A stretch of DNA of 64,000 nt, taken from the NCBI GenBank assembly GCA_040954595.2, contig CM082593.2, forward strand, positions 814,801 through 878,800, in the 5' to 3' direction. The stretch's first letter is position 1, and every line of letters begins with the position of its first letter. A model generated the notes under the pieces. It was not told the DNA's origin. It ran no database searches and was given only the letters and a program-made list of their open reading frames with translations. This document shows, in pieces, positions 1,797 through 56,900 of the stretch. This DNA comes from Balanoglossus misakiensis. Its lineage: Eukaryota; Animalia; Hemichordata. Both the position numbers and the translations under genes were made by a program.

Positions 1797-2193
1797 ATGG
1801 AGAGGAACTCAATAGTGATCTGCTTGTGTGCTTTGATCGCGTTTTGCGCGGCATGTACGACGGACTCGGAACTCAGCATCGAGTTAAAAACCTACAGGGC
1901 TCCGGTAGTATTGGAAGGAGTTATTCAGAGGACAGACGAGAGCACAAACTCAGTGACGGTCCGTGTGAAGAAGTCATTTAGACCAGAGGAAACATTTGTT
2001 GAAGTTATTGATATCTCAGGATTTGGTACAGATGAACCATGTATCATAAATGCAGATGAACTGCAAATTGATGAAACATACATTTTTTTTATTCGCGAAG
2101 ATGCGGACGATATCTTCTTCGTGGAATCAAACCCAGTTCCTTCAACGAGAGACGTAACGCGAGCAGTTCGCAAAATTGCTTGTGACGGTTGCG
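1797..2193 (+). CDS. nrg: Neuregulin-like gene, first coding exon: signal peptide plus NtA-like (agrin N-terminal / NRG2-type) domain
   Basis: MERNSIVICLCALIAFCAAC is a hydrophobic leader. YRAPVVLEGVIQ resembles the NRG2 N-terminal YKAPVVVEGKVQ, and ISGFG...C...ETYIFFI resembles agrin NtA (both recalled). Ends TGC G|GTAAGT (phase 1). Confidence 0.85.
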
Positions 2194-9293: not shown

Positions 9294-12200
9294 GCTTTTC
9301 ATTTTTGGAAATTGAACAAGAAAATGTTATTACTCATGAAAAGCTCATTAGCACTATAGTCTATTGATGTTAATAGGGCCCTGTGTTTGTTTAAAAGTAA
9401 GGCAATAGGCAATAAGGCAATGACTTGTCGACAAACGTGTTTGCTCAAAAATTATTCAGTATCATGGTGAAATTTAATTCATTCTTGCGGCAATCGATTT
9501 TTAAAGACAGGAAATTAAAATTAAAGGTTGGATGGTTGCAACAAAAGGCAAAAGACTGCGTCGAGGGACCTTGTATTAAATTCCCAAATCTTATTTGCTG
9601 CAGGGTCTCGAGTTGAGGTTAGCAGTGTGAAGTCAATATTGTGTGGTCTTTTACTGGCCACCAGCTGAAGACCGATTTCTTCATTTGCATGTAAATTTCT
9701 ACGGGCGCAATATACAGTGGTGTCACTTTTAAGTCATCTAGGCAATGTGTGGGCTTAGTCATAAGTTTCTCTTCTAAACCTTGTTTACGAAGAAATATTG
9801 GAGTGTTGGTTTGTTTAATCATCACAGAATTGTGACTGTCAAGGTCACATCCCACTCTGTATGTCCTGTCATCCACAATTCGGTTCTGTCATCTCTCAGT
9901 GTAGCTCTGGACTTATACGCTGTTTGGGTCTCTTGATCAAATTTGTCCGCAACTTGGACTGTTGGAATCAGCTTTCCCAGACGAGCCCTCTGACACTCAT
10001 ATCACTGGAAATTTACTTTCCCCAAGTGGTGTAAAGTTCATAGGTTCAAATAATAAACACACCACATTATAACTCTTTAAGGAGCCAACGCTATAACATG
10101 ATAGTATTATTAAATCTCTGAAATATGTGTTCTATCCCCCATGGGTCACCTAGCTATGTGTGTGCCCCCATTCTGAAGGTCACACTTCATGATTTTTGAT
10201 GGAATAAACTGATATTATTATTGCAGGGATAATGGCCCCTCTTTCGTACTCTATTGGTGACCCTTGGTGATCAGTAGTGTCCATCACTGCCATTCTTCAT
10301 TTGAAAACTTCCCCTTGTCACGTTTCAGACATATATTAATGGTCTGGTGACGTGCAACAGAATGGCACTTCAGATGTTCAGGGGCTGGGTATAGTTATCA
10401 TTCAGTAGCTGCTTGGATTGCGGTCATGGTATCTGTATTTGTCCTATCTGTCGTCTGATGTAGGAGGGGGACAGTGAACTTTGACAAATGGCCACTGCAC
10501 ATCCCAGGGTTCACTTGCCACTGTCCATCGTGGGCACCAGTGGTACATTTAGTGGATGCATTCTTGCAAGTTTTAGCGAGAGTTAAAACTATTGTGTCTT
10601 AGGGGACACAGTGGTTGTATCTTTTTAGAATTCCTCCTGATTAAAACGAACTCTGATTCTCCCGCAGAAGTTAGGTATGGCTACTTGCCTCTGAGGTATG
10701 TCAGGTTCCTCTCATTGCAAAGATGACATTTCTTGATTTTCCACATGTAAAATTCATGGAATGCCACAAGACTGAAATAATCCAATACTTGGCCAGGTTT
10801 TTTTTGTTTCAAGGAAATCCACAGGAGTACAGAACTGTTTTCTTTAGTATCCTACTAATCCTAGTAAATGGAGAAATGACATTTGTCTTTCTCAAGTCAT
10901 CCATACTGGTCAGCTCCTTTTTTGCCATGGAATTCTGGACGGTTCAAGGAATGATTAACAGGTGACCATGTCATTAAAGCCAATGTATTCATCAATTAGA
11001 GCATCTACATTGTTGTCTAAATTATCTTCATTAACTTCTTGACAATTACCCCAATATCAATAGCCTTTGGTCTTTGCCGATTCCTCCCTGGCCTTCCCCC
11101 CTCCTTTAGTCTGAAATGGAAAGACAACCCTCTTATTAAACGGACAACACTATCCAAATTTAGAGTCCGAAAATTGATTTTTTTTTCACAGAGATTTTAA
11201 TGAACCTGATAGTCTTGATTCTTAACTGGAAGGACTGTTTTAATTTTGGGGGTTGTTCTTGCGAGACAAATCCTTAAAAGGTGCCCGCGATGACTTCATG
11301 CATTCAATTACAGGATTTGTTGACTTTGTGACTCCCCGGCATTTTCAACGACTAATCCAATTGACTAAAGACAAAACATAGAGAGAGTGCGGTATTCTTA
11401 ATTAAAGTCTTAATCTCTTTACTGTCTTGATTTTTTTTGTCAATCTCTGAGCGTCTGGACTGATTCTGATTCCTGAAAACCAAGCGGTGCCTTGTCAGAT
11501 TTTAAAAGTGGACTGTAATAAGTCCTCCTGTTCTATGTTCTTTTAACCTTTCTTTGTTTCCATGGCAATGGCTGAATGCAGCAAATCTTTGTGCCCTTTG
11601 GGTGACCAGTTCCAGTTTTTGTCCAGGTATACATGCATGGTTGGTTTCTTCCATTAGCGGTGTACACACTGTGACCTTCTGAACAGGAGGAAGCCTGTCT
11701 TGAGGACGGCCACTTACTTTTGGGTAGGATATCACAAGTTGAAATGTTAGTGTGTTTGTTCCGGCATCACAAGCTTATCTCCACATCAACGTTGTGTTTC
11801 AAAAGTTCGGGCGATGAACAGATCTGTGTAAAACATACACAAGTAGTTAAGGTAGCACTCATCAATGTTGTAATGCAACACATTCAAATACTTAACCATG
11901 TTTTGTATTTGCTGCTATCGTAACTGGCTACAGTGTCTCTGATTGAAAATTGAAAGCCACTAGAATGATTCCTATTGGACGGCACAACTAAGAGTGTTGC
12001 AAGACCGAGCGCTGAGATTGCATACCATTGATGAACTTGTAGGAGTTAATCAAGGCGTAGTACATGTATGTGTCTGTGACCACGTAACAGTGAGTCATTC
12101 AGACAATGGCCCAGCTTCTTCTCTTGTTTCTTAGTGACTTGATTTAATACAGTTGAGTTGGTTGAAAGAGAATGGCCAAATAAAGAGACCATTCCTTTTG

Positions 12201-26896: not shown

Positions 26897-27006
26897 AAAA
26901 GGTTCGAGATTAAAAATTAAAAAGGCGAGGACGGGTCGCGATGATGGAGAGTATACATGTACAGCTGATAATGGCATTGGTCAAGTTTCAAGTTCAGCAG
27001 TTATAA
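26897..27006 (+). CDS. nrg: Neuregulin-like gene, Ig domain exon B
   Basis: Acceptor CCTAACAG| in phase 2. Encodes KGSRLKIKKARTGRDDGEYTCTADNGIGQVSSSAVI, with the DxGxYxC Ig motif. Donor A|GTAAGT (phase 1). Confidence 0.92.
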
Positions 27007-28162: not shown

Positions 28163-28385
28163 ATGACTTCAAGTACGCTACGTAACCTCACCTCAGTCAG
28201 TGTGCCAGTCATTCTAATTTCCAGTCTGCTGGCAACATTTGGATATGGCTTTGGAGTCACTGTCACTGAAGATTTCTCTGACAACGCTCTCCTACAGAAA
28301 GCGCTGCTGACTACTATAGCAGTGATTGAACCTGAACTACCTCCAACAACAACACAGTCTGTTGACAACGGTGACACAGACAAAG
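28163..28385 (+). CDS. nrg: Putative alternative first coding exon (signal/anchor segment plus Thr-rich stalk) for an Ig-less isoform
   Basis: MTSSTLRNLTSVSVPVILISSLLATFGYGFGVTVTEDFSDNALLQKALLTTIAVIEPELPPTTTQSVDNGDTDK. Donor G|GTAGG is phase 1, compatible with the acceptors at 29432 and 30087. Confidence 0.65.
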
Positions 28386-29431: not shown

Positions 29432-29582
29432 GCATATGTGATTTAACTTGCGAGAATAATGGCGACCTTAATCTCAAAAGGTGTAGTTGTTCGTGTAAAG
29501 ATGGATGGGAAGGAGATCGTTGTGAGACGGCCGTCAATGTGTGTGAAAAACAGTGTGAACATGGAACTCTGGATGAATCAAA
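29432..29582 (+). CDS. nrg: Neuregulin-like gene, extra EGF-repeat exon 1
   Basis: Acceptor TTCTCTTTCAG| in phase 1. Encodes ICDLTCENNGDLNLKRCSCSCKDGWEGDRCETAVNVCEKQCEHGTLDES(K). Donor AA|GTAAG (phase 2). Confidence 0.88.
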
Positions 29583-29784
29583 GTAAGAACGATATTATAT
29601 GGAACTCAACTGTTTTCTGAAAGGGACAGGGAAATGTGTTCAGTATAGACAGGTTTCCAGATTAGACAGGGTTCGGTTTAGACAGGTTTGATGGCATAAA
29701 TGTGATACAGAAATTTAAAGTCACAAATTCTTAAAATTTCATGACTTTGAGATTAATCTGACACTAATGATAATATGATTACAG

Positions 29785-29930
29785 GTGTGAATGTATTTGT
29801 AATGAAGGCTACTCAGGGGAAACTTGTGATACCCCTGTTTGTACAAAGATCTGTGGATCTCATGGGACTCTAGACGTCCTGAACTGTACCTGTCATTGTG
29901 ATGATGGCTGGTCTGGTGATGTCTGCGAAA
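29785..29930 (+). CDS. nrg: Neuregulin-like gene, extra EGF-repeat exon 2
   Basis: Acceptor TTACAG| in phase 2. Encodes CECICNEGYSGETCDTPVCTKICGSHGTLDVLNCTCHCDDGWSGDVCE. Donor A|GTAAGT (phase 1). Confidence 0.88.
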
Positions 29931-30086: not shown

Positions 30087-30183
30087 CATCCAACTCTCAC
30101 TTATCTCCCTGTAAAACAACAGTGTATTGCTTGAATGGGGGATCGTGTTATGAAGCGCAACAGATCGGACACATGATATGCCA
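30087..30183 (+). CDS. nrg: Neuregulin-like gene, NRG-type EGF domain N-half (Cys1-Cys4)
   Basis: (T)SNSHLSPCKTTVYCLNGGSCYEAQQIGHMIC resembles NRG1 SHLVKC...FCVNGGECF. The phase-2 intron between Cys4 and Cys5 is the hallmark of ErbB ligand genes. Donor CA|GTAAGT. Confidence 0.92.
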
Positions 30184-33100
30184 GTAAGTACACCCATACT
30201 TTTACCTACCATCCTATCGAAGATGGTCTAACCCTATTGTCACCGGGGCAGAGGGTCATACCATGTTAGATTCAAGGGGTGGAAAGCTTTGTGTGCAGCA
30301 GAGAAAGGATACAGAATCCAGACATCTGGTCGTGTTGTCTTGGTAGAAAAATTTATCTTGTGTTTCAATGATCACAGACTTCCATCGGCCATTATTTTCA
30401 TTCACTTTATAATTCAGAGAATGATTGGCAGGCAGAGCACACGACAACATCATTCCATTTCTGGTCTCTGTGTCTTTCTAATGTGATGATCAAGAGGAAT
30501 TTTTCCATTGCCGTCTATCTACTGTGATATAAATTTTGTTTTTCTGACGTGATGACATCAAATGATCTTTTCGTGAAAAAAACCCAACAACATAAATAAC
30601 TTCTCGTATGAAAAGCAGTAGCAAAGCAATGTTATTCTTCTGGTAAGTTTTAAATAACATGTTACTATGGCAATGGAAAATTTCTTGATTTTGATTTTGT
30701 TCATGTCAAGAAAGTGCACTTTGTTTTGTGATGGTATTACAAAGTAATGAAAATGACTCTTGCATGTAAATGCTGAGGCTGTGCAAACTGTAACTTCCAA
30801 CTTGCTCTATTTTGCAACCTTTGCAAATTGCACAACATAACATCACCATAGTGCAATTTCTTGTCTGAACTGATGCTTGGCAAATTTGATTTGGCAAGTT
30901 TTGCGAGATAGCTCCTTAAATGAATAACTGGATGAAATATGGGACAGTTTGCTTGATTGATAAGCAGAGAAAAGTTAGAAGATGTTTCATTTGATATCAT
31001 GAATTCATTTTCACTACTGGGGTCAACCAGGGAAGAGGAAATTGTGGTCATGTGACTAGTGAAAGTCACTTCAGTCATGTGACTTGCACCATGTTATTAC
31101 AGGGGTCACCATATAGCTGCCCCAAGTATTTGTTTTGTGTTCAGTTCCAATGCGGCTGCAATGACCTCATGTGTGTGTCGTGTTTCAGTGTGTGTGTCTT
31201 GTGTCAGTGTTTGTCTTGCCTTTGTGAGATTTGTCGAATTCAGGAAAGCTGTACCTTCCTCTCTACTACTGTCACACACACAAACATAAACACACACACA
31301 CACACCATACGACTACACACATCAAGTAACACTAACAGACCAAACATTTTTATTTACGTTTATGCTGATCATTCATTCATTCCATTTCAGCATTTTTTCC
31401 AGGCACATTGACAATTATTTTCTATAACATTATGTTTTAACAACATGTTGCAGGGGATAATATCCATTTCCATTCATTTCATCAGCATTTCTGGTGAAAT
31501 CATTCTAACTTGCATGGAGTTCATCACATTTGACCTCTGAACTCTGACTTTACAGTCAGCCATCTTGAATATTTGGATTTGACATCTTTGTAAACTAAAA
31601 TCGTTGTATGGTCATTTTTGGGTGGGGGAGAGTTGCAGTGCATCTTTGAAGGCAACCAACCAATCGTTAGAGATCGAACTTGGTGAACTCCATGTACATA
31701 TGAATATTTTCCCAGCCACTAGTAACAAAACAAAGCAGTTTCTCTTTGACAAAATTGGGGAAAAACATCTCTTTGCAGATACATCAGATCTCATAGACAG
31801 AGTCAACTTAGTCTGCAATGTTCACATGAACCTTATAATTATAAATCTAAGTCAAATGTAAAACACCTATCTACTGATTGTTTTCTTTTTATCTATACTT
31901 TACTCATTACATTCTGAACTATTGAAGAAAACTGAATTTCTTGTTTTGAACTCTTTAGTATGTGGTCTTTGAAACTTAAGTCTTTCAGTGTCTTTGATCA
32001 TATCCTTCTAATTTAAAATATCCCATGAAATTATATACTGTTAAGCTATCTACCTGTTGGTTCAATCATGTCACATGACATGACTGACCCAAAGCGAGGT
32101 AAATTTAGTGAATATTCATGAGAGCATCATGTGATGTGAATAAGCCGATAGTATAGCTGTTTCAGATCTTCTCTTGTGTCTTTCTCACTCGTTGCTATGG
32201 TGATGGTTGTCAGTTCTGTTTTCAAGGGAAATAAAGACATGAATGCATGAAGGCGAAATTATAAAAATCTGGATAAGGTGATTTTTAAGGTACTTTTTAA
32301 ATAGTTGTCTTCACTAACCTTTGTTTCTTAAAATGTAACAAAAAAAAAATCGAATGAGATGTTGTTATGGGATGATTACTAAGCAGCACAATGCACCAGC
32401 TTCTATACAGTAAGTTCTCCTATTTCAGTGTTTTTGTTCAATTTGATCAAACCAATCACTTGTTATAATAACTAAACTTGCAAACAGGGAAAAAAAACGG
32501 AAAAAGTTTTACTAGTATTAGGAAGCCATAGTTAAAAGACATTTCAAACAAGGCTTGTGAAATAAGGAATACCAAACTGGCCATTTCCTGTTGACTCAGG
32601 AAATATAATTTGATTCTCAAATTTACCTGTGTAGTTATGAGATCACATAATTGGCCACCATCTTGCATAATTAGAATTTATTTTAAATTCCCAGTTTAGG
32701 CTAATTTTCCCACATCCACTTGAAAGTCATGGTTTGCATGTCAACTTTTCCTTTTGCCTGAAAGATCCAATTTTTTTTTAGTTGCAATGGTCTTATTTTT
32801 TCCCACTGTTTGTGGTTACTGTGCCTGCACTCCACACTTGCCTTGCTTTCATCTGCACTTTAACCCCAGCCTGACCCTTGACCTCTGGTTTTTAATCAGT
32901 GGTCAATGCATTTCATGTGATGTCTATGTTTAACACTTGACAACACTTATAAGTTTTTTTCTTTGATAACAGTAATAAAACAAAACTGCAGGAAATTATA
33001 CCCTAATAACAAGAACAGTATTCTTATTTGAAATTTCTTGTTCTCGATCGCTTTCTTCGCATTTTCTGTCAAAGTTTGGATGTTCTTCGTGGAGTTAGTT

Positions 33101-33793
33101 TCTTTCTATGTTGTACGTTTCTATCAATATGGGAAGAATCTATCTACCACAGAAAAGTTCTGACCAAAATCAATCTATTGCTGTCTGTTTGCCTGTCTCC
33201 TTTCGCTCGTGCGTCAAGTTTGTGAACTGTAATCCAAATTACGTCTCAAAATTCAATGCACATTCCGTTTTTCTATTTTGGACGCATGTATATTGTGATT
33301 TATCAAATTTCTTTTTATGACAATTTTTTTTTTCAAAAATGCATGTCACTGTTACAGTTTGTGATGGTTAAACTAGAGGTGTGGTGTTGATATGTCAAAA
33401 CTGCACTCTTTGCATTTGACATTGTCATTTTTTTTTGGTCCCAACTTGAACTTGCATGTTCTTCTCACAAAGCCTGCACTATAAAGTACCCTGATAGACG
33501 GCTCTATACATTCCCTAGGTGCATGTGGGAAAATATGGTAACAAAAAAGTCTACTGGTTTATTTAAAGTAGCAAAGAACTGAAAAATCTTTTAAACTATT
33601 TTCTGATTCAAATTCAGCATAGTAAGTTTCAGTAAATGTAAATCTGACAATCTGAACCAGATTCAGAATCCTTTTCACAATTTGCGCTCCTGGCGACAAC
33701 CGTGCAACTCTCAGCTACCTAGGGGGTCTATAGTGCCCTTTAAGTGAGGGTAGTTATAGTGCGGCCAGTTTCTGATCTCATAACCCCTCACAG

Positions 33794-33937
33794 GTGCAAA
33801 CCGAATTTTATGGGTCCACGGTGCCAGTTCCCCAAGCCAGTAGACAAGCCTCGTGATCCCACCAATCCAAATTGTGACTTCTGCCTGAATGGAGGCCGTT
33901 GTGAGTTCTATGAAGGAGTAGACGAGATCGTCTGCAA
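33794..33937 (+). CDS. nrg: Neuregulin-like gene, 144-nt phase 2-2 exon: C-half of EGF A plus N-half of EGF B
   Basis: Acceptor CCCCTCACAG|. Encodes CKPNFMGPRCQFPKPVDKPRDPTNPNCDFCLNGGRCEFYEGVDEIVC. Donor AA|GTAAGT. Confidence 0.88.
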
Positions 33938-36900
33938 GTAAGTAAAGTGTCGGCAAGCTGGAGAGATTAGGGTGCAATAAATGGACTCAACAAGTGATGT
34001 AGAAAAGCCTAGGCTGGACTAAAGTTATGCAACAAATTCAGAGTTTTTGAAACACAGTCTTGTTAGGTGTCTTTTCAGTCATGAAATTGAGATGAAAAAA
34101 AAAAAAGGAAATCGAGATTGAAACCCCACGACAGCTTCCAACCCAGTATGAAGTGGAGTTTTAAGACTTCATTAATTGAAGTTTCAATTCTGCTGACATC
34201 TTCCCAACACACCAACTCAACATTATCATTCTTTTTGATAATTTAGAGCATTCTCCACAGTTCTGCCATGCTCAATTCATCTGACAATCATGTGATAATC
34301 ACATGATAGTCATATCATCCTCACAAAGTCACAACTCATGATCGTTGCTACTGTAAAGCAGTCTTTTGGCAAAAAGCAAGATTTAATTAAACCGTGGAAA
34401 TGTTTCAGGACATTTTTGCCTTTTTATGCTGTTTTAATCTCTATTTGCTTCATTCCAAATGACACCTGCAACAATAGATTTCATGGCTGGAAGTTCCTAA
34501 TACTTCTTGTGAAATCTGTGCTTTATACTTTTTTTGTTTTTCAAAACTATGTACTTCTTTCGCATAACTTAAAAACTGCTTGCGTCTTGTCTTTCTCAAT
34601 AGTGCTTGTATGTTTGTACATTTGAGAGAACGGAAATTCCATATTCTACTTAATTGTCAGCAGAAAATTTCATTTGTTGTTTTCATTGTGAAAGGAGATT
34701 TCTTTGCTGCTTTAGGAACTCAGCCAATCCCAATAGTGCAATGCTTTGAAGTTTTTCGTTTTAATTTTTTGTTCGTTTTTTTTCTGAGTGTAAATATTGT
34801 ACAGTGTTGTTTTAAAGTTGTTGCTTGTTCGTTTGTTTTGTAAAGTAAGGGAAAATTGATATTGAGTATGACTGTCTTTATGTTTTATAACGTCACAGAA
34901 CTGTATTCCTGCCAAGACTGGAAATGTGATGTTTTTTTTCAGGCAGTTTGTGTCAAATTGTTTGTACCATATATATTTTATATTATTTACAGATGGCTTT
35001 AGTGGTTGTCCAGTTGTGATAAGTTTTATGTATCTTAATGGCGTACCACAGACTTCAGGATAAGTCTGTTTTTAGTTGATAGGTTGGAATACGGAGACTT
35101 GATTATGTATATAGCTATATATATTTTTTGCGATTTTCGTCTTCAAGTTCTTGTGAAAGTTTGGGTCTCTTGATGGAAGAGACTTAACGCAAAAGAAGAT
35201 TTCCCCAGCCCATCCCCTATTCCCCTTCCCTTGAGAAAATGCCTCATTTCGTAAAACAGAGCAGAAATTGGACACAGTAGATATTCACAAATTCATCTGT
35301 CTTTAAAAAAAGTTGTTCAGACGATGTTTCTTTTTTTATTTACGAAAAGAGAAAAACAAAAGAGATAAGGAAATGTTGACAATGATTTTGTCATTCATGT
35401 AAGTTATGTATGTACAGTTGTTCCAACAAAATCAGACTGACTCCACATTTTCCAATATAATTTCTAATTTTGACATTTTTTCAAAATTTTGTAAAAATCA
35501 AGATTTTAATTTACTTTTGGTCAAAAATTATTTAAAATTATGGTAACTGTATGATAACAGTGTACAAATTGTACATTTATATTTGTTAAAGAACGATTTC
35601 CAGTTTTTTTTATGGAAATGCAAGCGACAGTAACCCTTTAGTGTCCCCAAATATTGAGCGAGGCTTCTGCTTGCAATGCAAAGAGTACACTATTAGTATG
35701 TATTTATTTTTAACAAACAATTCATCTTCCAAAGTTATTTTAGAAGTGATGTCACAGTCAGATGGTAGTTGTTAGGATAAATGTGTTTATATGCATCAGT
35801 ACAAGGGTGGTCAATACAGACGGAAATATATAATTTGACAAAACAGACATTACTGCACTTAGCAAAGACATTAACACTTCCATCTTACTTCTGACAGATT
35901 TGTACAAAAAAGTAAGATTGTTTATTTTTGTAAAAAAGTTACCAATATACTTAATTTTTGTGGTTATTTCTGGTTCTTGTAGAGCAGCCAATTTCTCCTT
36001 ATTTACCTAATTTATTTATTAGCAACACGTCCAAGAACATTATTTAACAATTTTTTTATCCAAAACTCCAAGAATATTGTAACCAGAACTATGTGAACAC
36101 GTTTCATCACAATAATGTATTAACGTGTATATTAATTTTCATTGTTATTCCATCTGAATATTTGTAAGATCATTTTAAAACAAGCTGCAGATTTTCTGAA
36201 ATCAAAGACTAAATTTAGTGTTAATGCATTGCTTGCCGATCTGACTAATATTTCATCACAAGCTTCATTGCGACTTTGCTAATCTTGTAAAACTGCTTGC
36301 TTTTTTGTCGTTTCCCAAATAATTGGCATGTACTTAATAGAATCCATGCATTTAAAATTATCTTGTTTTTATTCTAATGCCTTTTATTTTTTTGTGATCT
36401 TCCGTAATCAAATCCACATTGTCTTGCCTGTTCGGAAAGTAAATCTGCACAAAAATCTCATTGTAATATTGAAATTTAATTATCACAAGAATAATTTTAT
36501 TATTTTATATTTTTTAATCAAGTTAATTTCAGCTATAAAAAATGTGACACACAATAGAAAATTAGGACTGTTAATTTTTTTCAAATTTAACCTATTAATA
36601 TAAAATATGTAGATCCAAAGACTTTAGACAAGTCTGCTTGCCTTAAATAATGATTTTTTTCGTCGAATCGGACTCTTGAAAATTTGGTGCTATTTTAAAA
36701 TGATCAGAGTTCATTATTTTTGTATTTAATTGTGAAAAACTTAAGAAATTGTGCACTTACAAACCGAGAAAATATATAAATTGTATTTTTTCGCAAATTT
36801 GGAGCCTTTGCTATTCCATCAGAGAAGAGCATGGAAAATATTAACAAAAAACTCATAATTTAAAAATCTTGCCATTTTTTCTCGACTCATCTCATGTGAT

Positions 36901-37692
36901 GTTCGCATGAGATCATGATGTTTCTCATTATTTATGTACTTATATATTTGTATTTGTATCTCTGGATAGAACAATTCCATTTTTCTTGCCAAAAGAGAAA
37001 CCTTGCCTCACTCCTTGCCTTCCATCTCTTCATTCCCAATGGAATAGTTCTGTCGCTTCAAATTTTCCCGATTTATTTACTCATTTTGGTCACCATGATC
37101 AAAAACACATGTCAGTCATCCCAATCTTGGCACAGATCAAGTTGTATCCTCTTTATGTACAAATCATTTCTTTGTTGACAATTAGTGGACAGATCTGTAC
37201 CATTCAAAATCAAACTTTTATTGTCACCATTGGCAACTGCATTTGTTCTTTTTTCCCCCAAAGAAATAAAAAAGTCATATTTTTCATAAATAAAACACTC
37301 TGCGTCCAAGAGGTTATATGTCCACAATAGGTAAAATAAAAATTACTTTGTTCTACGTGTTGGTGTATCATTCATGTACTCTTACTTTACTCTCATAAAA
37401 TGTTCATGCTGCACTATATCTCTTCTCACCCTAGTTGGAGACGGTTGCCATGGCTACTCATCACCATGGTTATTAATGTGGAAGTCATACTGTCATGCTG
37501 TCTTTTATTCCTAGGTGTATACTAACTATTCAATAAAATTATTTAAAGACAACTGATGGGGTTGGAGCTGGTTTTTGAATGTGTGTCACTGACTTGCACC
37601 AGGTTTTATTTATTTTCAATTAAGTTGCACTGGTCTCTCGATACTCTTCTAATCTTAGCACGAAATCTCGATTTATTTTTTTCTCTTTTCAG

Positions 37693-37763
37693 TTGCCCAC
37701 CTCCATACACTGGAACTCGGTGTCAGTTCAAAGATCCAAACACTGTCTATAGAATGATGCAAA
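37693..37763 (+). CDS. nrg: Neuregulin-like gene, EGF C-half and juxtamembrane exon
   Basis: Acceptor CTCTTTTCAG| in phase 2. Encodes CPPPYTGTRCQFKDPNTVYRMMQ, with the ErbB-ligand motif Y-x-G-x-R-C. Donor A|GTAAGT (phase 1). Confidence 0.92.
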
Positions 37764-38117
37764 GTAAGTCCTCACTTTATATCCTCAAATAATCTTGACA
37801 TAAATTCCAATTTTATGTTCTAGTTGGTAAATGTAAATGTCTTGTAGTTCCGTCAATGTTTTGAATTTTGTTTTATATATACCCGCATGTATTTGTTTAT
37901 TCGTTATGATGTATAGTTTGTTATTATGCTTATTATAAAAACCAACCCCAACACTGTTGTATGACTGGATATTTATCAACATATAAAGCACGAAGCATTT
38001 TTTAGTTTTATTACATTTTAGTTTAATTTACTTTTGTATGCTTGCAGTAACCCAGCATGTCTCCCGGTTAACAGATTTTAGTAGCTTACACTTAGTTTTT
38101 ATGTTTTTGTGCACTAG

Positions 38118-38220
38118 GTGCCAAGGATTTACATACCAAGCGAATTCTCACTGTTGTTGGAGTGTTTGTGGCATTGTTGGTGCTTATCATCATCTGTATT
38201 GTGGCATGGTGTAAAGCAAG
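38118..38220 (+). CDS. nrg: Neuregulin-like gene, transmembrane exon
   Basis: Acceptor GCACTAG| in phase 1. (S)AKDLHTKRILTVVGVFVALLVLIIICIVAWCKA(R) aligns by eye to NRG1 AEELYQKRVLTITGICIALLVVGIMCVVAYCKTK. Donor AG|GTGAG (phase 2). The ORF track lists a different frame here. Confidence 0.95.
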
Positions 38221-38694: not shown

Positions 38695-38827
38695 GTCAGA
38701 TAAAAATCATTGTCTTCCATGCCGTGGGGCTCCTAACTCCTCCGACTCTGCTTTCAATAAAAATGAGAACCATGTTGATGAGAGTGCCAATGGGCTTTTG
38801 AATGGGGGCAGAATAACTCAAGTTTAA
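38695..38827 (+). CDS. nrg: Putative alternative terminal exon: short cytoplasmic tail ending -TQV
   Basis: Strong acceptor TTCTTTTATGTTTACAG| in phase 2, open for 43 codons: SDKNHCLPCRGAPNSSDSAFNKNENHVDESANGLLNGGRITQV*. An AT-rich UTR-like stretch with AATAAA at 40138 and 40257 follows. Confidence 0.6.
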
Positions 38828-42515: not shown

Positions 42516-42690
42516 GAAAGGGAAGAAAAAATGGAAGAAAAGGCAGGAGGAGAAAGAAACGGAGGAGAGAGAGGAAATTGCGGAGACGGAGGAGGAGGAG
42601 GAAGAAGAAGGAGAAAAATTGATGTGGCATCCTCCCGGAAGCCAGAGTAATGGTAATGTCCTCCAGGATGCTAATGATATTCCGCTACAG
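42516..42690 (+). CDS. nrg: Neuregulin-like gene, cytoplasmic exon 1 (basic stop-transfer run, then poly-Glu)
   Basis: Acceptor (TCTG)nTGCAG| in phase 2. Encodes KGKKKWKKRQEEKETEEREEIAETEEEEEEEGEKLMWHPPGSQSNGNVLQDANDIPLQ. Donor CAG|GTAACA (phase 0). Confidence 0.88.
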
Positions 42691-43101: not shown

Positions 43102-44157
43102 CAAATGGGGCGTGAAGATGAAAATGAAAATGTCGGCCAGGAATACGAAACTACTTTCATGCATCCTCCATCTAGTAATGGCTTCTCAACACACCAGAGT
43201 CCCAATGAGATGAGTTACCATGGTAAAGGCAGCCCACATCTAAGTATTGGTAGTCACCATAGCAACAACAGTCACCAGAACAACCCTGAGAGAAATGGTC
43301 ACCGTGGCAGCCCTCTGAACAGTCTCAGTAATCGACAGATGAACACAAATAATAATAAGAGCTTACCTGTGCAGAAAATAATGCCATATTCATTTGATCA
43401 GTTAAATGATAACTATGATATACATCCAGCTGAACAAATGGATTGTGATCGAGAGGTAAGCACACCCACAGTTCAAGAAACTGATTCTGATTTAGAAGAC
43501 GATTATCCAAGATTTCCCGTGGCAGAAACTGAAGAGGAAGACAGCAATATGGATGATGCTTACGTCTTTTTGCCTCGGCAGCCGCGGGAACCACTTCCTG
43601 AAGGTGCTTTCAAACGACCAACACTGGACTTTGAGGTTCAGTCCAACAGTGCGTCATTACTAGAGGCTGAGGATGGTAGCGTATACACCAATGAAGACAC
43701 AACCATCGCTACAGGTTCTGACAGCGAATCGTCTAGTAGTGATGGTAACAGCTCATCGAGTAGTAGCGAGGACGGACGTTTGGATCTGCAGGATCCACGC
43801 TTACTGGCATTACAGAATCAACATAGCGATAAAGACAGCGGTGATTACGCTTGGGATGATGAAGAATTCTCTCCAGTGCACACTCAGCCAGCAATACATT
43901 TCATGGCAAATCCCTACGCAGGTCACGGATCACCTATACGCCAATCTCACCAACGCACTGCCCCTGCTGCCTTCAACCACTTTGCCAGTAATCCCTTGTA
44001 CGCTGCGATCCCCAACAACAAAACCTCGCAGGGTTCTCCACGAGGACGTGATAAATTCTCTGAGGACAATGGTAATGATGAGTCACAGACAGAAGAAGAT
44101 GAATGCATGTCCAGATTAAAAGATATTATCGAAAATCAAAATAGTGTGAATATATGA
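43102..44157 (+). CDS. nrg: Neuregulin-like gene, terminal exon: long acidic, Ser-rich cytoplasmic tail
   Basis: Acceptor TGTTGCAG| in phase 0, open to TGA at 44155-44157. QEYETT, SSSSEDGR...LLALQN and the C-terminal ECMSRLKDIIENQNSVNI recall the NRG1 a-tail (EEYETT, SETEDER...FLGIQN, EIQARLSSVIANQDPIAV). Confidence 0.9.
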   Translation, partial: QMGREDENENVGQEYETTFMHPPSSNGFSTHQSPNEMSYHGKGSPHLSIGSHHSNNSHQNNPERNGHRGSPLNSLSNRQMNTNNNKSLPVQKIMPYSFDQLNDNYDIHPAEQMDCDREVSTPTVQETDSDLEDDYPRFPVAETEEEDSNMDDAYVFLPRQPREPLPEGAFKRPTLDFEVQSNSASLLEAEDGSVYTNEDTTIATGSDSESSSSDGNSSSSSSEDGRLDLQDPRLLALQNQHSDKDSGDYAWDDEEFSPVHTQPAIHFMANPYAGHGSPIRQSHQRTAPAAFNHFASNPLYAAIPNNKTSQGSPRGRDKFSEDNGNDESQTEEDECMSRLKDIIENQNSVNI

Positions 44158-47904: not shown

Positions 47905-50900
47905 AGAGTCGAGAATTTGTCATTTTTTCATAAAATTCATGAGCTATAACCCATGAAAAACGTTCAAAAATGACAGAACACCAAGATTTGCAAAGTCGAG
48001 AATTTGTCGTTTTTTGATAAAATTCTACAACCCATGAAAAATGTCTACAAACGACAAAATGACCGAAATTCGCAAAGTCGGAAAACTGTTAATTTTTAAA
48101 AATTTCCTGAGCTATAACCCATGGTTTTTTCAAAAATCGGCCAAATTTTGAAATTCCGCAAAGTCGAAAAATTCTCATTTTTTGATGATTTTCCTGAGCT
48201 ATAACCCATGGTTTTTATCCAAAAACCACCAAATTTTCAAATTTCGCGAAGTCGAAAAATTGACATTTCTGGATGATTTTCATAAGCTATAACCCATGGT
48301 TTTTATCCAAAAACCACCAAATTTTGAAATTTCGCGAAGTCGAAAAATTGACATTTCTGGATGATTTTCATGAGCTATAACCCATGGTTTTTATCCAAAA
48401 ACCACCGAATTTTGAAATTTCACGAAGACGAAAAATTGACATTTCTGGATGATTTTCATGAGCTATAACCCATGGTTTTTATCCAAAAACCACCAAATTT
48501 TGAAATTTCGCGAAGTCGAAAAATTGACATTTCTGGATGATTTTCATGAGCTATAACCCATGGTTTTTATCCAAAAACCACCGAATTTTGAAATTTCGCG
48601 AAGTCGAAAAATTGACATTTCTGGATGATTTTCATGAGCTATAACCCATGGTTTTTATCCAAAAACCACCAAATTTTCAAATTTCGCGAAGTCGAAAAAT
48701 TGACATTTCTGGATGATTTTCATGAGCTATAACCCATGGTTTTTATCCAAAAACCACCAAATTTTGAAATTTCGCGAAGTCGAAAAATTGACATTTCTGG
48801 ATGATTTTCATGAGCTATAACCCATGGTTTTTATCCAAAAACCACCAAATTTTGAAATTTCGCGAAGTCGAAAAATTGACATTTCTGGATGATTTTCATG
48901 AGCTATAACCCATGGTTTTTATCCAAAAACCACCAAATTTTGAAATTTCGCGAAGTCGAAAAATTGACATTTCTGGATGATTTTCATGAGCTATAACCCA
49001 TGGTTTTTATCCAAAAACCACCAAATTTTGAAATTTCGCGAAGTCGAAAAATTGACATTTCTGGATGATTTTCATGAGCTATAACCCATGGTTTTTATCC
49101 AAAAACCACCAAATTTTGAAATTTCGCGAAGTCGAAAAATTGACATTTCTTGATGATTTTCATGAGCTATAACCCATGGTTTTTGTCCAAAAACCACCAA
49201 ATTTTGAAATTTCGCGAAGTCGAAAAATTGACATTTCTGGATGATTTTCATGAGCTATAACCCATGGTTTTTATCCAAAAACCACCAAATTTTGAAATTT
49301 CGCGAAGTCGAAAAATTGACATTTCTTGATGATTTTCATGAGCTATAACCCATGGTTTTTGTCCAAAAACCACCAAATTTTGAAATTTCGCGAAGTCCAA
49401 AAATTGACATTTCTGGATGATTTTCATGAGCTATAACCCATGGTTTTTATCCAAAAACCACCGAATTTTGAAATTTCGCGAAGTCGAAAAATTGACATTT
49501 CTGGATGATTTTCATGAGCTATAACCCATGGTTTTTATCCAAAAACCACCAAATTTTGAAATTTCGCGAAGTCGAAAAATTGACATTTCTGGATGATTTT
49601 CATGAGCTATAACCCATGGTTTTTATCCAAAAACCACCGAATTTTGAAATTTCGCGAAGTCGAAAAATTGACATTTCTGGATGATTTTCATGAGCTATAA
49701 CCCATGGTTTTTATCCAAAAACCACCGAATTTTGAAATTTCGCGAAGTCGAAAAATTGACATTTCTGGATGATTTTCATGAGCTATAACCCATGGTTTTT
49801 ATCCAAAAACCACCAAATTTTGAAATTTCGCGAAGTCGAAAAATTGACATTTCTGGATGATTTTCATGAGCTATAACCCATGGTTTTTATCCAAAAACCA
49901 CCGAATTTTGAAATTTCGCGAAGTCGAAAAATTGACATTTCTGGATGATTTTCATGAGCTATAACCCATGGTTTTTGTCCAAAAACCACCGAATTTTGAA
50001 ATTTCGCCAAGTCGAAAAATTGACATTTCAGGATGATTTTCATGAGCTATAACCCATGGTTTTTGTCCAAAAACCACCAAATTTTGAAATTTCGCCAAGT
50101 CGAAAAATTGACATTTCTGGATGATTTTCATGAGCTATAACCCATGGTTTTTGTCCAAAAACCACCAAATTTTGAAATTTCGCGAAGTCGAAAAATTGAC
50201 ATTTCTGGATGATTTTCATGAGCTATAACCCATGGTTTTTGTCCAAAAACCACCAAATTTTGAAAATTCGCGAAGTCGAAAAATTGACATTTCTGGATGA
50301 TTTTCATGAGCTATAACCCATGGTTTTTGTCCAAAAACCACCAAATTTTGAAAATTCGCGAAGTCGAAAAATTGACATTTCTGGATGATTTTCATGAGCT
50401 ATAACCCATGGTTTTTATCCAAAAACCACCGAATTTTGAAATTTCGCGAAGTCGAAAAATTGACATTTCTGGATGATTTTCATGAGCTATAACCCATGGT
50501 TTTTGTCCAAAAACCACCGAATTTTGAAATTTCGCCAAGTCGAAAAATTGACATTTCAGGATGATTTTCATGAGCTATAACCCATGGTTTTTGTCCAAAA
50601 ACCACCAAATTTTGAAATTTCGCCAAGTCGAAAAATTGACATTTCTGGATGATTTTCATGAGCTATAACCCATGGTTTTTGTCCAAAAACCACCAAATTT
50701 TGAAATTTCGCGAAGTCGAAAAATTGACATTTCTGGATGATTTTCATGAGCTATAACCCATGGTTTTTGTCCAAAAACCACCAAATTTTGAAATTTCGCG
50801 AAGTCGAAAAATTGACATTTCTGGATGATTTTCATGAGCTATAACCCATGGTTTTTGTCCAAAAACCACCAAATTTTGAAAATTCGCGAAGTCGAAAAAT

Positions 50901-53900
50901 TGACATTTCTGGATGATTTTCATGAGCTATAACCCATGGTTTTTGTCCAAAAACCACCAAATTTTGAAAATTCGCGAAGTCGAAAAATTGACATTTCTGG
51001 ATGATTTTCATGAGCTATAACCAATGGTTTTTGTCCAAAAACCACCAAATTTTGAAATTTCGCGAAGTCGAAAAATTGACATTTCTGGATGATTTTCATG
51101 AGCTATAACCCATGGTTTTTGTCCAAAAACCACCAAATTTTGAAATTTCGCGAAGTCGAAAAATTGACATTTCTGGATGATTTTCATGAGCTATAACCCA
51201 TGGTTTTTATCCAAAAACCACCAAATTTTGAAATTTCGCGAAGTCGAAAAATTGACATTTCTGGATGATTTTCATGAGCTGTAACCCATGGTTTTTATCC
51301 AAAAACCACCAAATTTTGAAATTTCGCGAAGTCGAAAAATTGACATTTCTGGATGATTTTCATGAGCTATAACCCATGGTTTTTATCCAAAAACCACCGA
51401 ATTTTGAAATTTCGCGAAGTCGAAAAATTGACATTTCTGGATGATTTTCATGAGCTATAACCCATGGTTTTTATCCAAAAACCACCAAATTTTGAAATTT
51501 CGCGAAGTCGAAAAATTGACATTTCTGGATGATTTTCATGAGCTATAACCCATGGTTTTTATCCAAAAACCACCAAATTTTGAAATTTCGCGAAGTCGAA
51601 AAATTGACATTTCTGGATGATTTTCATGAGCTATAACCCATGGTTTTTATCCAAAAACCACCGAATTTTGAAATTTCGCGAAGTCGAAAAATTGACATTT
51701 CTGGATGATTTTCATGAGCTATAACCCATGGTTTTTGTCCAAAAACCACCAAATTTTGAAATTTCGCCAAGTCGAAAAATTGACATTTCAGGATGATTTT
51801 CATGAGCTATAACCCATGGTTTTTGTCCAAAAACCACCAAATTTTGAAATTTCGCGAAGTCGAAAAATTGACATTTCTGGATGATTTTCATGAGCTATAA
51901 CCCATGGTTTTTGTCCAAAAACCACCAAATTTTGAAATTTCGCGAAGTCGAAAAATTGACATTTCTGGATGATTTTCATGAGCTATAACCCATGGTTTTT
52001 GTCCAAAAACCACCAAATTTTGAAATTTCGCGAAGTCGAAAAATTGACATTTCTGGATGATTTTCATGAGCTATAACCCATGGTTTTTGTCCAAAAACCA
52101 CCAAATTTTGAAATTTCGCGAAGTCGAAAAATTGACATTTCTGGATGATTTTCATGAGCTATAACCCATGGTTTTTGTCCAAAAACCACCAAATTTTGAA
52201 ATTTCGCGAAGTTGAAAAATTGACATTTCTGGATGATTTTCATGAGCTATAACCCACGGTTTTTGTCCAAAAACCACCAAATTTTGAAATTTCGCGAAGT
52301 CGAAAAATTGACATTTCTGGATGATTTTCATGAGCTATAACCCATGGTTTTTGTCCAAAAACCACCAAATTTTGAAATTTCGCGAAGTCGAATAATTGAC
52401 ATTTCTGGATGATTTTCATGAGCTATAACCCATGGTTTTTGTCCAAAAACCACCAAATTTTGAAATTTCGCTAAGTCGAAAAATTGACATTTCTGGATGA
52501 TTTTCATGAGCTATAACCCATGGTTTTTGTCCAAAAACCACCAAATTTTGAAATTTCGCGAAGTCGAAAAATTGACATTTCTGGATGATTTTCATGAGCT
52601 ATAACCCATGGTTTTTGTCCAAAAACCACCAAATTTTGAAATTTCGCGAAGTCGAAAAATTGACATTTCTGGATGATTTTCATGAGCTATAACCCATGGT
52701 TTTTGTCCAAAAACCACCAAATTTTGAAATTTCGCGAAGTCGAAAAATTGACATTTCTGGATGATTTTCATGAGCTATAACCCATGGTTTTTGTCCAAAA
52801 ACCACCAAATTTTGAAATTTCGCGAAGTCGAAAAATTGACATTTCTGGATGATTTTCATGAGCTATAACCCATGGTTTTTGTCCAAAAACCACCAAATTT
52901 TGAAATTTCGCGAAGTCGAAAAATTGACATTTCTGGATGATTTTCATGAGCTATAACCCATGGTTTTTGTCCAAAAACCACCAAATTTTGAAATTTCGCG
53001 AAGTCGAAAAATTGACATTTCTGGATGATTTTCATGAGCTATAACCTATGGTTTTTGTCCAAAAACCACCAAATTTTGAAATTTCGCGAAGTCGAAAAAT
53101 TGACATTTCTGGATGATTTTCATGAGCTATAACCCATGGTTTTTGTCCAAAAACCACCAAATTTTGAAATTTCGCGAAGTCGAAAAATTGACATTTCTGG
53201 ATGATTTTCATGAGCTATAACCCATGGTTTTTGTCCAAAAACCACCAAATTTTGAAATTTCGCGAAGTCGAAAAATTGACATTTCTGGATGATTTTCATG
53301 AGCTATAACCCATGGTTTTTGTCCAAAAACCACCAAATTTTGAAATTTCGCGAAGTCGAAAAATTGACATTTCTGGATGATTTTCATGAGCTATAACCCA
53401 TGGTTTTTATCCAAAAACCACCAAATTTTGAAATTTCGCGAAGTCGAAAAATTGACATTTCTGGATGATTTTCATGAGCTATAACCCATGGTTTTTATCC
53501 AAAAACCACCAAATTTTGAAATTTCGCGAAGTCGAAAAATTGACATTTCTGGATGATTTTCATGAGCTATAACCCATGGTTTTTATCCAAAAACCACCAA
53601 ATTTTGAAATTTCGCGAAGTCGAAAAATTGACATTTCTGGATGATTTTCATGAGCTATAACCCATGGTTTTTATCCAAAAACCACCAAATTTTGAAATTT
53701 CGCGAAGTCGAAAAATTGACATTTCTGGATGATTTTCATGAGCTATAACCCATGGTTTTTATCCAAAAACCACCGAATTTTGAAATTTCGCGAAGTCGAA
53801 AAATTGACATTTCTGGATGATTTTCATGAGCTATAACCCATGGTTTTTATCCAAAAACCACCAAATTTTGAAATTTCGCGAAGTCGAAAAATTGACATTT

Positions 53901-56900
53901 CTGGATGATTTTCATGAGCTATAACCCATGGTTTTTATCCAAAAACCACCAAATTTTGAAATTTCGCGAAGTCGAAAAATTGACATTTCTGGATGATTTT
54001 CATGAGCTATAACCCATGGTTTTTATCCAAAAACCACCAAATTTTGAAATTTCGCGAAGTCGAAAAATTGACATTTCTGGATGATTTTCATGAGCTATAA
54101 CCCATGGTTTTTATCCAAAAACCACCGAATTTTGAAATTTCGCGAAGTCGAAAAATTGACATTTCTGGATGATTTTCATGAGCTATAACCCATGGTTTTT
54201 ATCCAAAAACCACCGAATTTTGAAATTTCGCGAAGTCGAAAAATTGACATTTCTGGATGATTTTCATGAGCTATAACCCATGGTTTTTATCCAAAAACCA
54301 CCAAATTTTGAAATTTCGCGAAGTCGAAAAATTGACATTTCTGGATGTTTTTCATGAGCTATAACCCATGGTTTTTATCCAAAAACCACCAAATTTTGAA
54401 ATTTCGCGAAGTCGAAAAATTGACATTTCTGGATGATTTTCATGAGCTATAACCCATGGTTTTTATCCAAAAACCACCGAATTTTGAAATTTCGCGAAGT
54501 CGAAAAATTGACATTTCTGGATGATTTTCATGAGCTATAACCCATGGTTTTTGTCCAAAAACCACCAAATTTTGAAATTTCGCCAAGTCGAAAAATTGAC
54601 ATTTCAGGATGATTTTCATGAGCTATAACCCATGGTTTTTGTCCAAAAACCACCAAATTTTGAAATTTCGCGAAGTCGAAAAATTGACATTTCTGGATGA
54701 TTTTCATGAGCTATAACCCATGGTTTTTGTCCAAAAACCACCAAATTTTGAAATTTCGCGAAGTCGAAAAATTGACATTTCTGGATGATTTTCATGAGCT
54801 ATAACCCATGGTTTTTGTCCAAAAACCACCAAATTTTGAAATTTCGCGAAGTCGAAAAATTGACATTTCTGGATGATTTTCATGAGCTATAACCCATGGT
54901 TTTTGTCCAAAAACCACCAAATTTTGAAATTTCGCGAAGTCGAAAAATTGACATTTCTGGATGATTTTCATGAGCTATAACCCATGGTTTTTGTCCAAAA
55001 ACCACCAAATTTTGAAATTTCGCGAAGTCGAAAAATTGACATTTCTGGATGATTTTCATGAGCTATAACCCATGGTTTTTGTCCAAAAACCACCAAATTT
55101 TGAAATTTCGCGAAGTCGAAAAATTGACATTTCTGGATGATTTTCATGAGCTATAACCCATGGTTTTTGTCCAAAAACCACCAAATTTTGAAATTTCGCG
55201 AAGTCGAAAAATTGACATTTCTGGATGATTTTCATGAGCTATAACCCATGGTTTTTGTCCAAAAACCACCAAATTTTGAAATTTCGCGAAGTCGAAAAAT
55301 TGACATTTCTGGATGATTTTCATGAGCTATAACCCATGGTTTTTGTCCAAAAACCACCAAATTTTGAAATTTCGCGAAGTCGAAAAATTGACATTTCTGG
55401 ATGATTTTCATGAGCTATAACCCATGGTTTTTGTCCAAAAACCACCAAATTTTGAAATTTCGCGAAGTCGAAAAATTGACATTTCTGGATGATTTTCATG
55501 AGCTATAACCCATGGCTTTTGTCCAAAAACCACCAAATTTTGAAATTTCGCGAAGTCGAAAAATTGACATTTTCTGGATGATTTTCATGAGCTATAACCC
55601 ATGGCTTTTGTCCAAAAACCACCAAATTTTGAAATTTCGCGAAGTCGAAAAATTGACATTTCTGGATGATTTTCATGAGCTATAACTCATGGTTTTTGTC
55701 CAAAAACCACCAAATTTTGAAATTTCGCGAAGTCGAAAAATTGACATTTCTGGATGATTTCATGAGCTATAACCCATGGTTTTTGTCCAAAAACCACCAA
55801 ATTTTGAAATTTCGCGAAGTCGAAAAATTGACATTTCTGGATGATTTTCATGAGCTATAACCCATGGTTTTTGTCCAAAAACCACCAAATTTTGAAATTT
55901 CCGCGAAGTCGAAAAATTGACATTTCTGGATGATTTTCATGAGCTATAACCCATGGTTTTTGTCCAAAAACCACCAAATTTTGAAATTTCGCGAAGTCGA
56001 AAAATTGACATTTCTGGATGATTTTCATGAGCTATAACCCATGGTTTTTGTCCAAAACCACCAAATTTTGAAATTTCGCGAAGTCGAAAAATTGACATTT
56101 CTGGATGATTTTCATGAGCTATAACCCATGGTTTTTGTCCAAAAACCACCAAATTTTGAAATTTCGCGAAGTCGAAAAATTGACATTTCTGGATGATTTT
56201 CATGAGCTATAACCCTATGGTTTTTGTCCAAAAACCACCAAATTTTGAAATTTCGCGAAGTCGAAAAATTGACATTTCTGGATGATTTTCATGAGCTATA
56301 ACCCATGGTTTTTGTCCAAAAACCACCAAATTTTGAAATTTCGCGAAGTCGAAAAAATTGACATTTCTGGATGATTTTCATGAGCTATAACCCATGGTTT
56401 TTGTCCAAAAACCACCAAATTTTGAAATTTCGCGAAGTCGAAAAATTGACATTTCTGGATGATTTTCATGAGCTATAACCCATGGTTTTTGTCCAAAAAC
56501 CACCAAATTTTGAAATTTCGCGAAGTCGAAAAATTGACATTTCTGGATGATTTTCATGAGCTATAACCCATGGTTTTTATCCAAAAACCACCAAATTTTG
56601 AAATTTCGCGAAGTCGAAAAATTGACATTTCTGGATGATTTTCATGAGCTATAACCCATGGTTTTTATCCAAAAACCACCAAATTTTGAAATTTCGCGAA
56701 GTCGAAAAATTGACATTTCTGGGATGATTTTCATGAGCTATAACCCATGGTTTTTATCCAAAAACCACCAAATTTTGAAATTTCGCGAAGTCGAAAAATT
56801 GACATTTCTGGATGATTTTCATGAGCTATAACCCATGGTTTTTTATCCAAAAACCACCAAATTTTGAAATTTCGCGAAGTCGAAAAATTGACATTTCTGG

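Follow-up and report, generated by a model that had tools for sequence, protein, structure and literature searches.

A likely optional exon that bridges two EGF domains in the neuregulin gene of the acorn worm Balanoglossus misakiensis

The present study concerns a stretch of 64,000 nucleotides of the genome of the acorn worm Balanoglossus misakiensis (GenBank assembly GCA_040954595.2, contig CM082593.2, positions 814,801 to 878,800 of the forward strand), which is called here, at its full length, the window; all coordinates are those of the window. It contains a neuregulin gene of 11 exons on the + strand (1797-44157), assembled by reading the window, which encodes in order a leader with an NRG2 N-terminal domain, an Ig I-set domain, three teneurin-type EGF-like repeats, an EGF core, a transmembrane helix and a long tail (Table 1). 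Within the EGF core lies a cassette exon (33794-33937) that carries the end of one EGF domain, EGF-A, and the beginning of another, EGF-B. By its orthology and domain plan the gene is an NRG-type neuregulin, and the identity proposed by the initial annotation was borne out by these and by Pfam matches to NRG2_N and I-set. Both Ig exons score above the Pfam cut-off, the Ig domain being missing only from the short isoforms, and a six-cysteine EGF stands 22 residues before the helix (38118-38220). The first exon had a single match, Ptychodera flava protein P0001 (E 3.8e-57), whose best non-self match among 1.84 billion representatives was the pro-neuregulin 2-like protein of Saccoglossus (E 1.9e-219). 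The whole chain is identical to the P. flava pro-neuregulin at 572 of 867 positions (66%).

The cassette exon is 144 nucleotides long, with AG before it and GTAAGT after it, and is in phase 2 at both ends. For brevity Cys1-Cys4 is called the N-half and Cys5-Cys6 the C-half of a domain; the exon runs from the C-half of EGF-A, closing in G-P-R-C, through a linker to the N-half of EGF-B. On inclusion the upstream N-half A is joined to the cassette C-half to give EGF-A, moved 48 residues outward from the membrane, and the cassette N-half (N-half B) is joined to the terminal C-half to give EGF-B, which is membrane-adjacent, 22 residues from the helix. Both are six-cysteine EGFs with G-x-R-C, Arg preceding Cys6 in each (G-P-R-C and G-T-R-C). 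On skipping, 30183 is spliced to 37693 in frame, and N-half A with the terminal C-half makes one EGF at a distance of 22 residues from the membrane. Both forms have an identical stalk, and the phase-2 introns after 30183 and 33937 are the Cys4-Cys5 splice site of EGF-A, EGF-B and the skip form. The ectodomain carries four EGF-like modules when the exon is skipped and five when it is included (three of them the upstream repeats at 29432-29930), and all four exon chains, two first exons each with and without the cassette, are open (867, 819, 721 and 673 residues). On re-reading 33794-33937, the length, the phases and the C-half plus N-half content given by the initial annotation matched exactly; its statement that inclusion yields two complete G-x-R-C EGFs and skipping a single one in frame also stood, and the position of the exon agrees with its claim that the cassette sits at the intron of the vertebrate alpha/beta swap.

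It was found by a scan of 30184-38117 that five AG sites precede a phase-2 Cys-x7-10-Cys, and that a G-x-R-C C-half follows only the acceptors at 33794 and 37693; no second terminal C-half exon was found in this interval, as only these two sites fit. The strict C-half pattern matched nowhere in the flanking intron DNA and nowhere in 200 shuffles, and thus its occurrence at 33794 is not due to chance. Between B. misakiensis and P. flava the cassette exon is identical at 39 of 48 residues (81%), whereas the flanking EGF exons reach 16/32 and 12/24 (50% each). At this 81% identity it is not a dead exon, and the pseudo-exon reading was rejected. A conserved dibasic cleavage site in the linker was also considered and rejected, the Lys-Pro-Arg of the window being absent from P. 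flava.

The pro-neuregulin-1-like gene of P. flava is the orthologue, with the same two first exons and the same cassette. Its RefSeq models (XP_070545417.1, XP_070545419.1, XP_070545420.1 and XP_070545421.1; a fifth cluster member, an unrelated-looking fragment of 46 residues, was set aside) are divided two and two: X1 (876 residues) and X3 (719) include the cassette, X2 (828) and X4 (671) skip it, and including and skipping models differ by exactly 48 residues. They are automated and carry no functional description, the including X1 being named 'uncharacterized protein'. Gene models of the RefSeq type rest on transcript alignments. Because the phase-2 codon is split, the residue between Cys4 and Cys5 shifts with inclusion, being Q/H in the window and in P. 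flava, L/F in sea cucumbers and R/S in Amphiura.

Hemichordate, echinoderm and amphioxus orthologues were aligned, as the initial annotation had suggested, and some have the cassette while others are without it. The counts refer to proteins that reach the EGF region, fragments having been dropped. The exon is included in two of four P. flava proteins, in three of five from Apostichopus (five fragments dropped), five of eight from Amphiura, one of four of the Holothuria type (two dropped) and all three from Diadema (one dropped). It was found in none of the Saccoglossus (0/2) or Antedon (crinoid, 0/4) proteins, nor in those of Branchiostoma (0/12), Owenia (0/5), Lineus (0/1), fish NRG2a (0/1), oyster (0/13; 15 of 32 cluster members listed, two dropped), Lutzomyia (0/3, one dropped), Planococcus (0/5, one dropped) or P0198 (0/1). 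In the echinoderm neuregulins (Apostichopus XP_071829994-999, Amphiura XP_072038812-820, Diadema, Holothuria KAJ8022635.1) a cassette of a C-half plus an N-half occupies the same position; it has 42-46 residues with a linker of 8-9, and is accompanied by two alternative terminal C-halves and one extra upstream EGF-like module. In Apostichopus and in Amphiura the models pair either terminal C-half with the cassette present or absent, all four combinations occurring, a two-by-two arrangement that gives four different membrane-proximal EGFs. Two complete G-x-R-C EGFs are retained in six species.

Both including and skipping forms occur in four lineages, namely P. flava, Apostichopus, Amphiura and the Holothuria type, Diadema being include only. 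The three skipping Holothuria-type proteins come from Logan contigs, which probably represent spliced RNA because at 1.9-3.7 kb they span many exons; one of them, P0088, is 100% identical to the including model P0160 over the aligned positions. In the window itself the cassette acceptor is the T-poorest among 10 internal or last exons (4/16 T). The intron upstream of the cassette holds seven TGCATG motifs of the RBFOX type, candidate splicing silencers; in 300 dinucleotide shuffles the mean was 1.65 and one shuffle reached seven, for an excess that had first been picked out by eye. The reverse strand of the upstream intron and the downstream intron hold no TGCATG, and fixed 3.6-kb tiles across the window have one to four on the + strand. 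RBFOX binding upstream of an exon is associated with repression (PMC11874969), and the upstream-only TGCATG motifs are a hint, suggestive only, of regulated skipping via RBFOX.

It could be argued that the exon is effectively constitutive or silent in B. misakiensis and that the second form in the models of relatives is low-level splicing noise. Low-level skipping is possible for any phase-symmetric exon, and the Diadema models only include it (3/3). On the other hand, both forms are seen in four lineages, the three Holothuria-type proteins derived from sequencing runs all skip an exon that the genome model includes, the 81% conservation excludes a dead exon, and the T-poor acceptor and one-sided TGCATG motifs also speak against noise. 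We regard this explanation as very improbable. From the models of its relatives, the cassette is likely alternatively spliced in B. misakiensis.

The two forms can be compared with neuregulins that have one EGF. The pro-neuregulin 2-like protein of Saccoglossus kowalevskii (AOR07027.1, XP_002739836.1; the NRG-type ligand of Barberan et al. 2016) shares the Ig domain, the three teneurin-type repeats and a near-identical transmembrane helix with the window. It has one EGF, matching the skip form, and its annotated exons hold no cassette. The skip form is likely the ordinary and ancestral domain, which inclusion would cut into two chimeras, because N-half A outscores N-half B against all eight single-EGF neuregulins (loop length explaining part of the gap) and the terminal C-half is closest to that of Saccoglossus, scoring 65.5 where the cassette C-half scores 37.5. 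The initial annotation had called the skip form a hybrid; the label did not hold, since the one EGF of Saccoglossus corresponds to the skip form and chimeras arise by inclusion.

Internal duplication, which had been put forward as the source of the exon, was supported by the orthologue comparison. Support is mixed for the cassette C-half as a member of an old alpha/beta pair of C-halves: against 11 outgroup C-halves the terminal C-half scored higher in six and the cassette C-half in four, with one tie, and echinoderms retain both alternative C-halves alongside the cassette. With acorn-worm N-half B the score was 48.0 for echinoderm B and 49.2 for echinoderm A. In a tree of N-halves over 31 columns, 11 of the 17 inner branches were unresolved and the B halves were not joined; the C-half alignment, at only 19 columns, is too short for a tree. 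By these comparisons a single gain of the cassette, with losses in Saccoglossus and Antedon, and two separate gains in acorn worms and echinoderms both fit.

Taken together, we consider it probable, though with no more than moderate confidence, that the exon is a frame-preserving cassette, likely alternatively spliced, which serves as a regulated half-domain swap tuning ligand strength on what is probably a single EGF receptor. Both forms would be made in B. misakiensis, with skipping favoured where an RBFOX protein is expressed. Skipping would give the ordinary EGF, and inclusion a chimeric EGF-A in the distal position together with EGF-B next to the membrane on the same stalk. By analogy with vertebrate alpha/beta isoforms, the affinity or signalling strength of the chimeric domains may not be that of the ordinary one, and EGF-B would be a binding surface and not a mere spacer. 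It should be noted here that one EGFR and one NRG were counted in Saccoglossus and Strongylocentrotus (Barberan et al. 2016, PMC4914847), and that in vertebrate NRG1 the C-half by itself accounts for the differing affinity and potency of alpha and beta (PMC9471952).

Two features define the modules of ErbB ligands, a splice site between Cys4 and Cys5 and proximity to the membrane (Stein and Staros 2006, PMC1618406). EGF-B and the skip form have both, and EGF-A has the splice site only. EGF-B has a shortened first loop, merely two residues separating Cys1 from Cys2 in both acorn worms, against four in Amphiura and Diadema and seven in sea cucumbers; in EGF-A and the skip form the same loop has five residues in B. 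misakiensis, as in Saccoglossus and Lineus, and seven in P. flava. EGF-B nevertheless keeps an aromatic residue before Cys2, Leu after Cys2 and Arg before Cys6, its intron is still at Cys4-Cys5 and it lies next to the membrane; between the two acorn worms N-half B is 88% identical while N-half A is 55% identical.

When the structure of the P. flava tandem was predicted from an alignment of five rows, the predicted local distance difference test score (pLDDT) was about 90 in EGF-A, 70-82 in EGF-B and below 50 in the linker. The top Foldseek rows for this model were generic tandem EGFs such as Notch; after realignment ErbB ligands took the first 13 places, each aligned to EGF-A, the best being receptor-bound NRG1-beta (3u7u, Z 8.2, root-mean-square deviation 1.1, 48 residues). 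As the fold search yields one alignment per chain, EGF-B is hardly probed by it. EGF-B alone gave structure rows in the Atlas with template-modelling (TM) scores of 0.73-0.82, eight of ten being neuregulin or vein clusters, a comparison of prediction with prediction over 47 residues. The sequence of the cassette against those of the PDB gave E values of 0.21-0.76, with EGF, TGF-alpha or heregulin in nine of 11 rows and neuraminidase in two. Other searches were less informative: in a first Atlas search the best row, at 0.90, was an NRG4 fragment cluster and every TM score was below 0.5, so that these are leads only; a single-sequence fold of P0002 had a mean pLDDT of 43.6; and matches to fish NRG2 were dominated by Ig domains. 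Of the two ErbB-type EGFs described by the initial annotation, EGF-B is thus supported by its intron position, Arg and predicted fold, and its shortened first loop remains a point against it.

These same results bear on another explanation, in which the cassette is real but only EGF-A, or neither domain, engages EGFR, and EGF-B is a spacer, a modifier of shedding or a site for another partner. Inclusion would then amount to an alpha/beta-like swap of C-halves with a longer stalk. The short first loop in acorn worms, Amphiura and Diadema, the lower scores of N-half B against all eight single-EGF neuregulins and the placing of all ErbB-ligand matches among the top 14 fold-search rows on EGF-A are in its favour. 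It is opposed by the better conservation of N-half B, by the ligand-type features that EGF-B keeps and by the full seven-residue loop of sea cucumber EGF-B, and the single alignment per chain deprives the fold search of much of its force. We consider this explanation unlikely, and prefer that EGF-B takes part in a half-domain swap as a binding surface.

The tandem could also be a two-headed ligand, both EGFs binding at once and cross-linking receptors, with avidity or clustering as the outcome; neighbouring dimers would be more plausible partners than the two halves of one dimer. Six species retain two complete EGFs, the low pLDDT of the linker predicts flexibility, and engineered bivalent EGF and NRG caused receptor clustering and biased signalling (PMC3149363). 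However, the ligand sites of an EGFR dimer are about 10 nm apart and the engineered ligands used a spacer of about 20 nm (Jay et al. 2011, PMC3149363), whereas the linker has 16 residues in acorn worms and 8-9 in echinoderms, which at about 0.37 nm per residue, fully extended, reach about 6 nm and about 3 nm. The residues at the linker ends are, in addition, expected to be occupied by receptor contacts, as solved ligands align to model residues 4-51. Bridging of both sites of one receptor dimer is unlikely because of these distances, and the 'bivalent neuregulin' of the initial annotation is not sustained by them. We hold a two-headed ligand to be distinctly doubtful. Equally doubtful is a bolder version, in which an RBFOX-controlled exon kept since the common ancestor of acorn worms and echinoderms would encode a two-headed EGFR ligand whose heads cross-link neighbouring receptors, splicing would switch clustering, and the two-by-two code of echinoderms would let a single gene supply one receptor with four ligand domains.

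Several points weigh against the preferred half-domain swap as well. On inclusion EGF-A is displaced from the membrane by 48 residues and so loses one of the two features by which Stein and Staros define such modules. The two residues between Cys1 and Cys2 of EGF-B compare with seven in human NRG1-3 and 5-7 in EGF-A. The isoforms of the relatives are mostly automated gene models, none of the three EGF-bearing Holothuria-type Logan proteins includes the cassette, and Saccoglossus (0/2) and Antedon (0/4) are without it. TGCATG was spotted by eye before the statistical test and ranks just seventh of 4096 hexamers in the upstream intron, and repression by upstream RBFOX is not fully consistent (PMC11874969). 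Finally, the count of receptors comes from two other species only.

The positions of the features are collected in Table 1.

Table 1. Exons and motifs of the neuregulin gene in the window
Coordinates	Strand	Feature	Evidence or remark
1797..2193	+	Long-isoform first exon, encoding a start like a signal peptide and the NRG2 N-terminal domain	Pfam PF25518 NRG2_N 28.6 bits (cut-off 27); 79% to P. flava P0001
26597..26750	+	Ig I-set, first half	Pfam I-set 39.2 bits (cut-off 23.7); 75% to P. flava
26897..27006	+	Ig I-set, second half	Pfam I-set 25.9 bits; 65% to P. flava
28163..28385	+	Alternative first exon, hydrophobic leader, Ig-less isoforms	Aligns with P. flava X3/X4 N-terminus; its chains of 721 and 673 residues are open
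29432..29582	+	Teneurin-type EGF-like repeat 1 and start of repeat 2	Translation; teneurin EGF matches below cut-off; 74% to P. flava
29785..29930	+	Rest of repeat 2 and teneurin-type EGF-like repeat 3	PF23106 26.8 bits (cut-off 24.3); 65% to P. flava
30087..30183	+	Shared EGF exon with N-half A (Cys1-Cys4), its 3' end in phase 2	50% to P. flava
30761..33525	+	Seven TGCATG (RBFOX-type) motifs, candidate splicing silencers	Intron upstream of cassette
33794..33937	+	Cassette exon	C-half of EGF-A and N-half of EGF-B, joined by a proline-rich linker of 16 residues
37693..37763	+	Terminal C-half exon, Cys5-Cys6 and stalk start, common to both forms	Nearest is Saccoglossus C-half
38118..38220	+	End of the stalk, with the transmembrane helix	85% to P. 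flava
42516..42690	+	First cytoplasmic exon	56% to P. flava
43102..44157	+	Final coding exon, with the long tail in the cytoplasm and the stop codon	59% to P. flava; no Pfam family

Some further observations were made along the gene. The internal first exon lies between the Ig and EGF exons, removes the Ig domain and is kept in P. flava X3/X4; by its position we take it to resemble the type III first exon of vertebrate NRG1. Shorter models also occur in Antedon (X4), Apostichopus (X5) and Amphiura (X8), the latter two with a different N-terminus. Beyond the transmembrane exon there is a candidate alternative last exon (38695-38827) with a T-rich acceptor, in phase with that exon, encoding a tail of 44 residues that ends in T-Q-V-stop, consistent with a class I PDZ-binding motif. 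It is followed by AATAAA at 40138 and 40257, and is not among the four P. flava models. The three teneurin-type repeats were seen in the acorn-worm and echinoderm neuregulins examined and not in the amphioxus, annelid, mollusc and fish proteins, and in echinoderms one extra ligand-like EGF stands among them. Within intron 1, two tandem copies of 239 bp (8610-9094) that agree at 84% lie inside an apparent repeat or mobile-element remnant (about 8100-9300). A satellite array with a period of 88 bp, about 180 copies and 98% matches begins about 4 kb past the stop codon (48103-64000).

The arrangement can be set beside that of vertebrate NRG1 and NRG2. The plan of N-terminal domain, Ig, EGF and transmembrane helix is common to both, and in both a common N-half exon is joined at the Cys4-Cys5 intron to differing C-halves (PMC9471952). 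Vertebrates, however, choose one of two C-half exons and always obtain one EGF, whereas in the window an optional exon adds a second. The window also differs in the three teneurin-type repeats before the ligand EGF and in the tail: no match to the Pfam Neuregulin cytoplasmic domain (PF02158) was found in its last exon or in any of the nine ambulacrarian proteins scanned. Two mutually exclusive terminal C-halves are absent from the window, and P. flava has one C-half in 4/4 models, whereas echinoderms, amphioxus and Owenia have two. In EGF-A the spacing of Cys1 and Cys2 separates the two acorn worms, with five residues in B. misakiensis and seven in P. flava. The engineered bivalent NRG-NRG and EGF-EGF ligands resemble the included form in having two ErbB-ligand domains per molecule (PMC3149363), but they are artificial with a spacer of about 20 nm and the natural linker reaches at most about 6 nm. 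The splicing arrangement differs from the alpha/beta system, and its isoforms appear in automated annotations. In the literature searched, most subscription journals lying outside its scope, no published description of the cassette exon was found. The main text of PMC4914847 contains 'splic' and 'isoform' 0 times, and the text of its supplement gives a Saccoglossus NRG with one EGF and, for a sea urchin, a model that lacks the ligand-type EGF.

Two alternative C-halves at Cys4-Cys5 were seen in Branchiostoma (P0117/P0169), Owenia (P0141/P0176), Antedon (P0027/P0159) and other echinoderm models, and Antedon, Branchiostoma and Owenia have them without the cassette. Such pairs are probably present in oyster and Lineus too; the oyster NRG in the PMC4914847 supplement has a C-half unlike that of the oyster proteins compared here. 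Splicing of the alpha/beta type is likely much older than vertebrates, because alternative C-halves occur in the amphioxus, crinoid, other echinoderm and annelid models. In Diadema, P0221, P0222 and P0225 are separate membrane proteins with one neuregulin-like EGF beside the helix and no Pfam Ig on record, and are candidate EGF-type ligands. EGF-type ligands were not found in Strongylocentrotus purpuratus by Barberan et al. (PMC4914847).

In published descriptions a neuregulin has one receptor-binding EGF, and splicing exchanges the C-half of that domain, as it does in vertebrate NRG1 (PMC9471952). In the gene described here the same intron would swap the other half of the EGF too and alter the number of ligand-type domains, and it would do so in animals for which a single EGFR and a single neuregulin are reported. 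The half-domain chimeras would thus be a natural means to ask which half of an EGF sets affinity or signalling strength on a single receptor, and the short tandem may serve as a natural means to ask whether avidity is possible.

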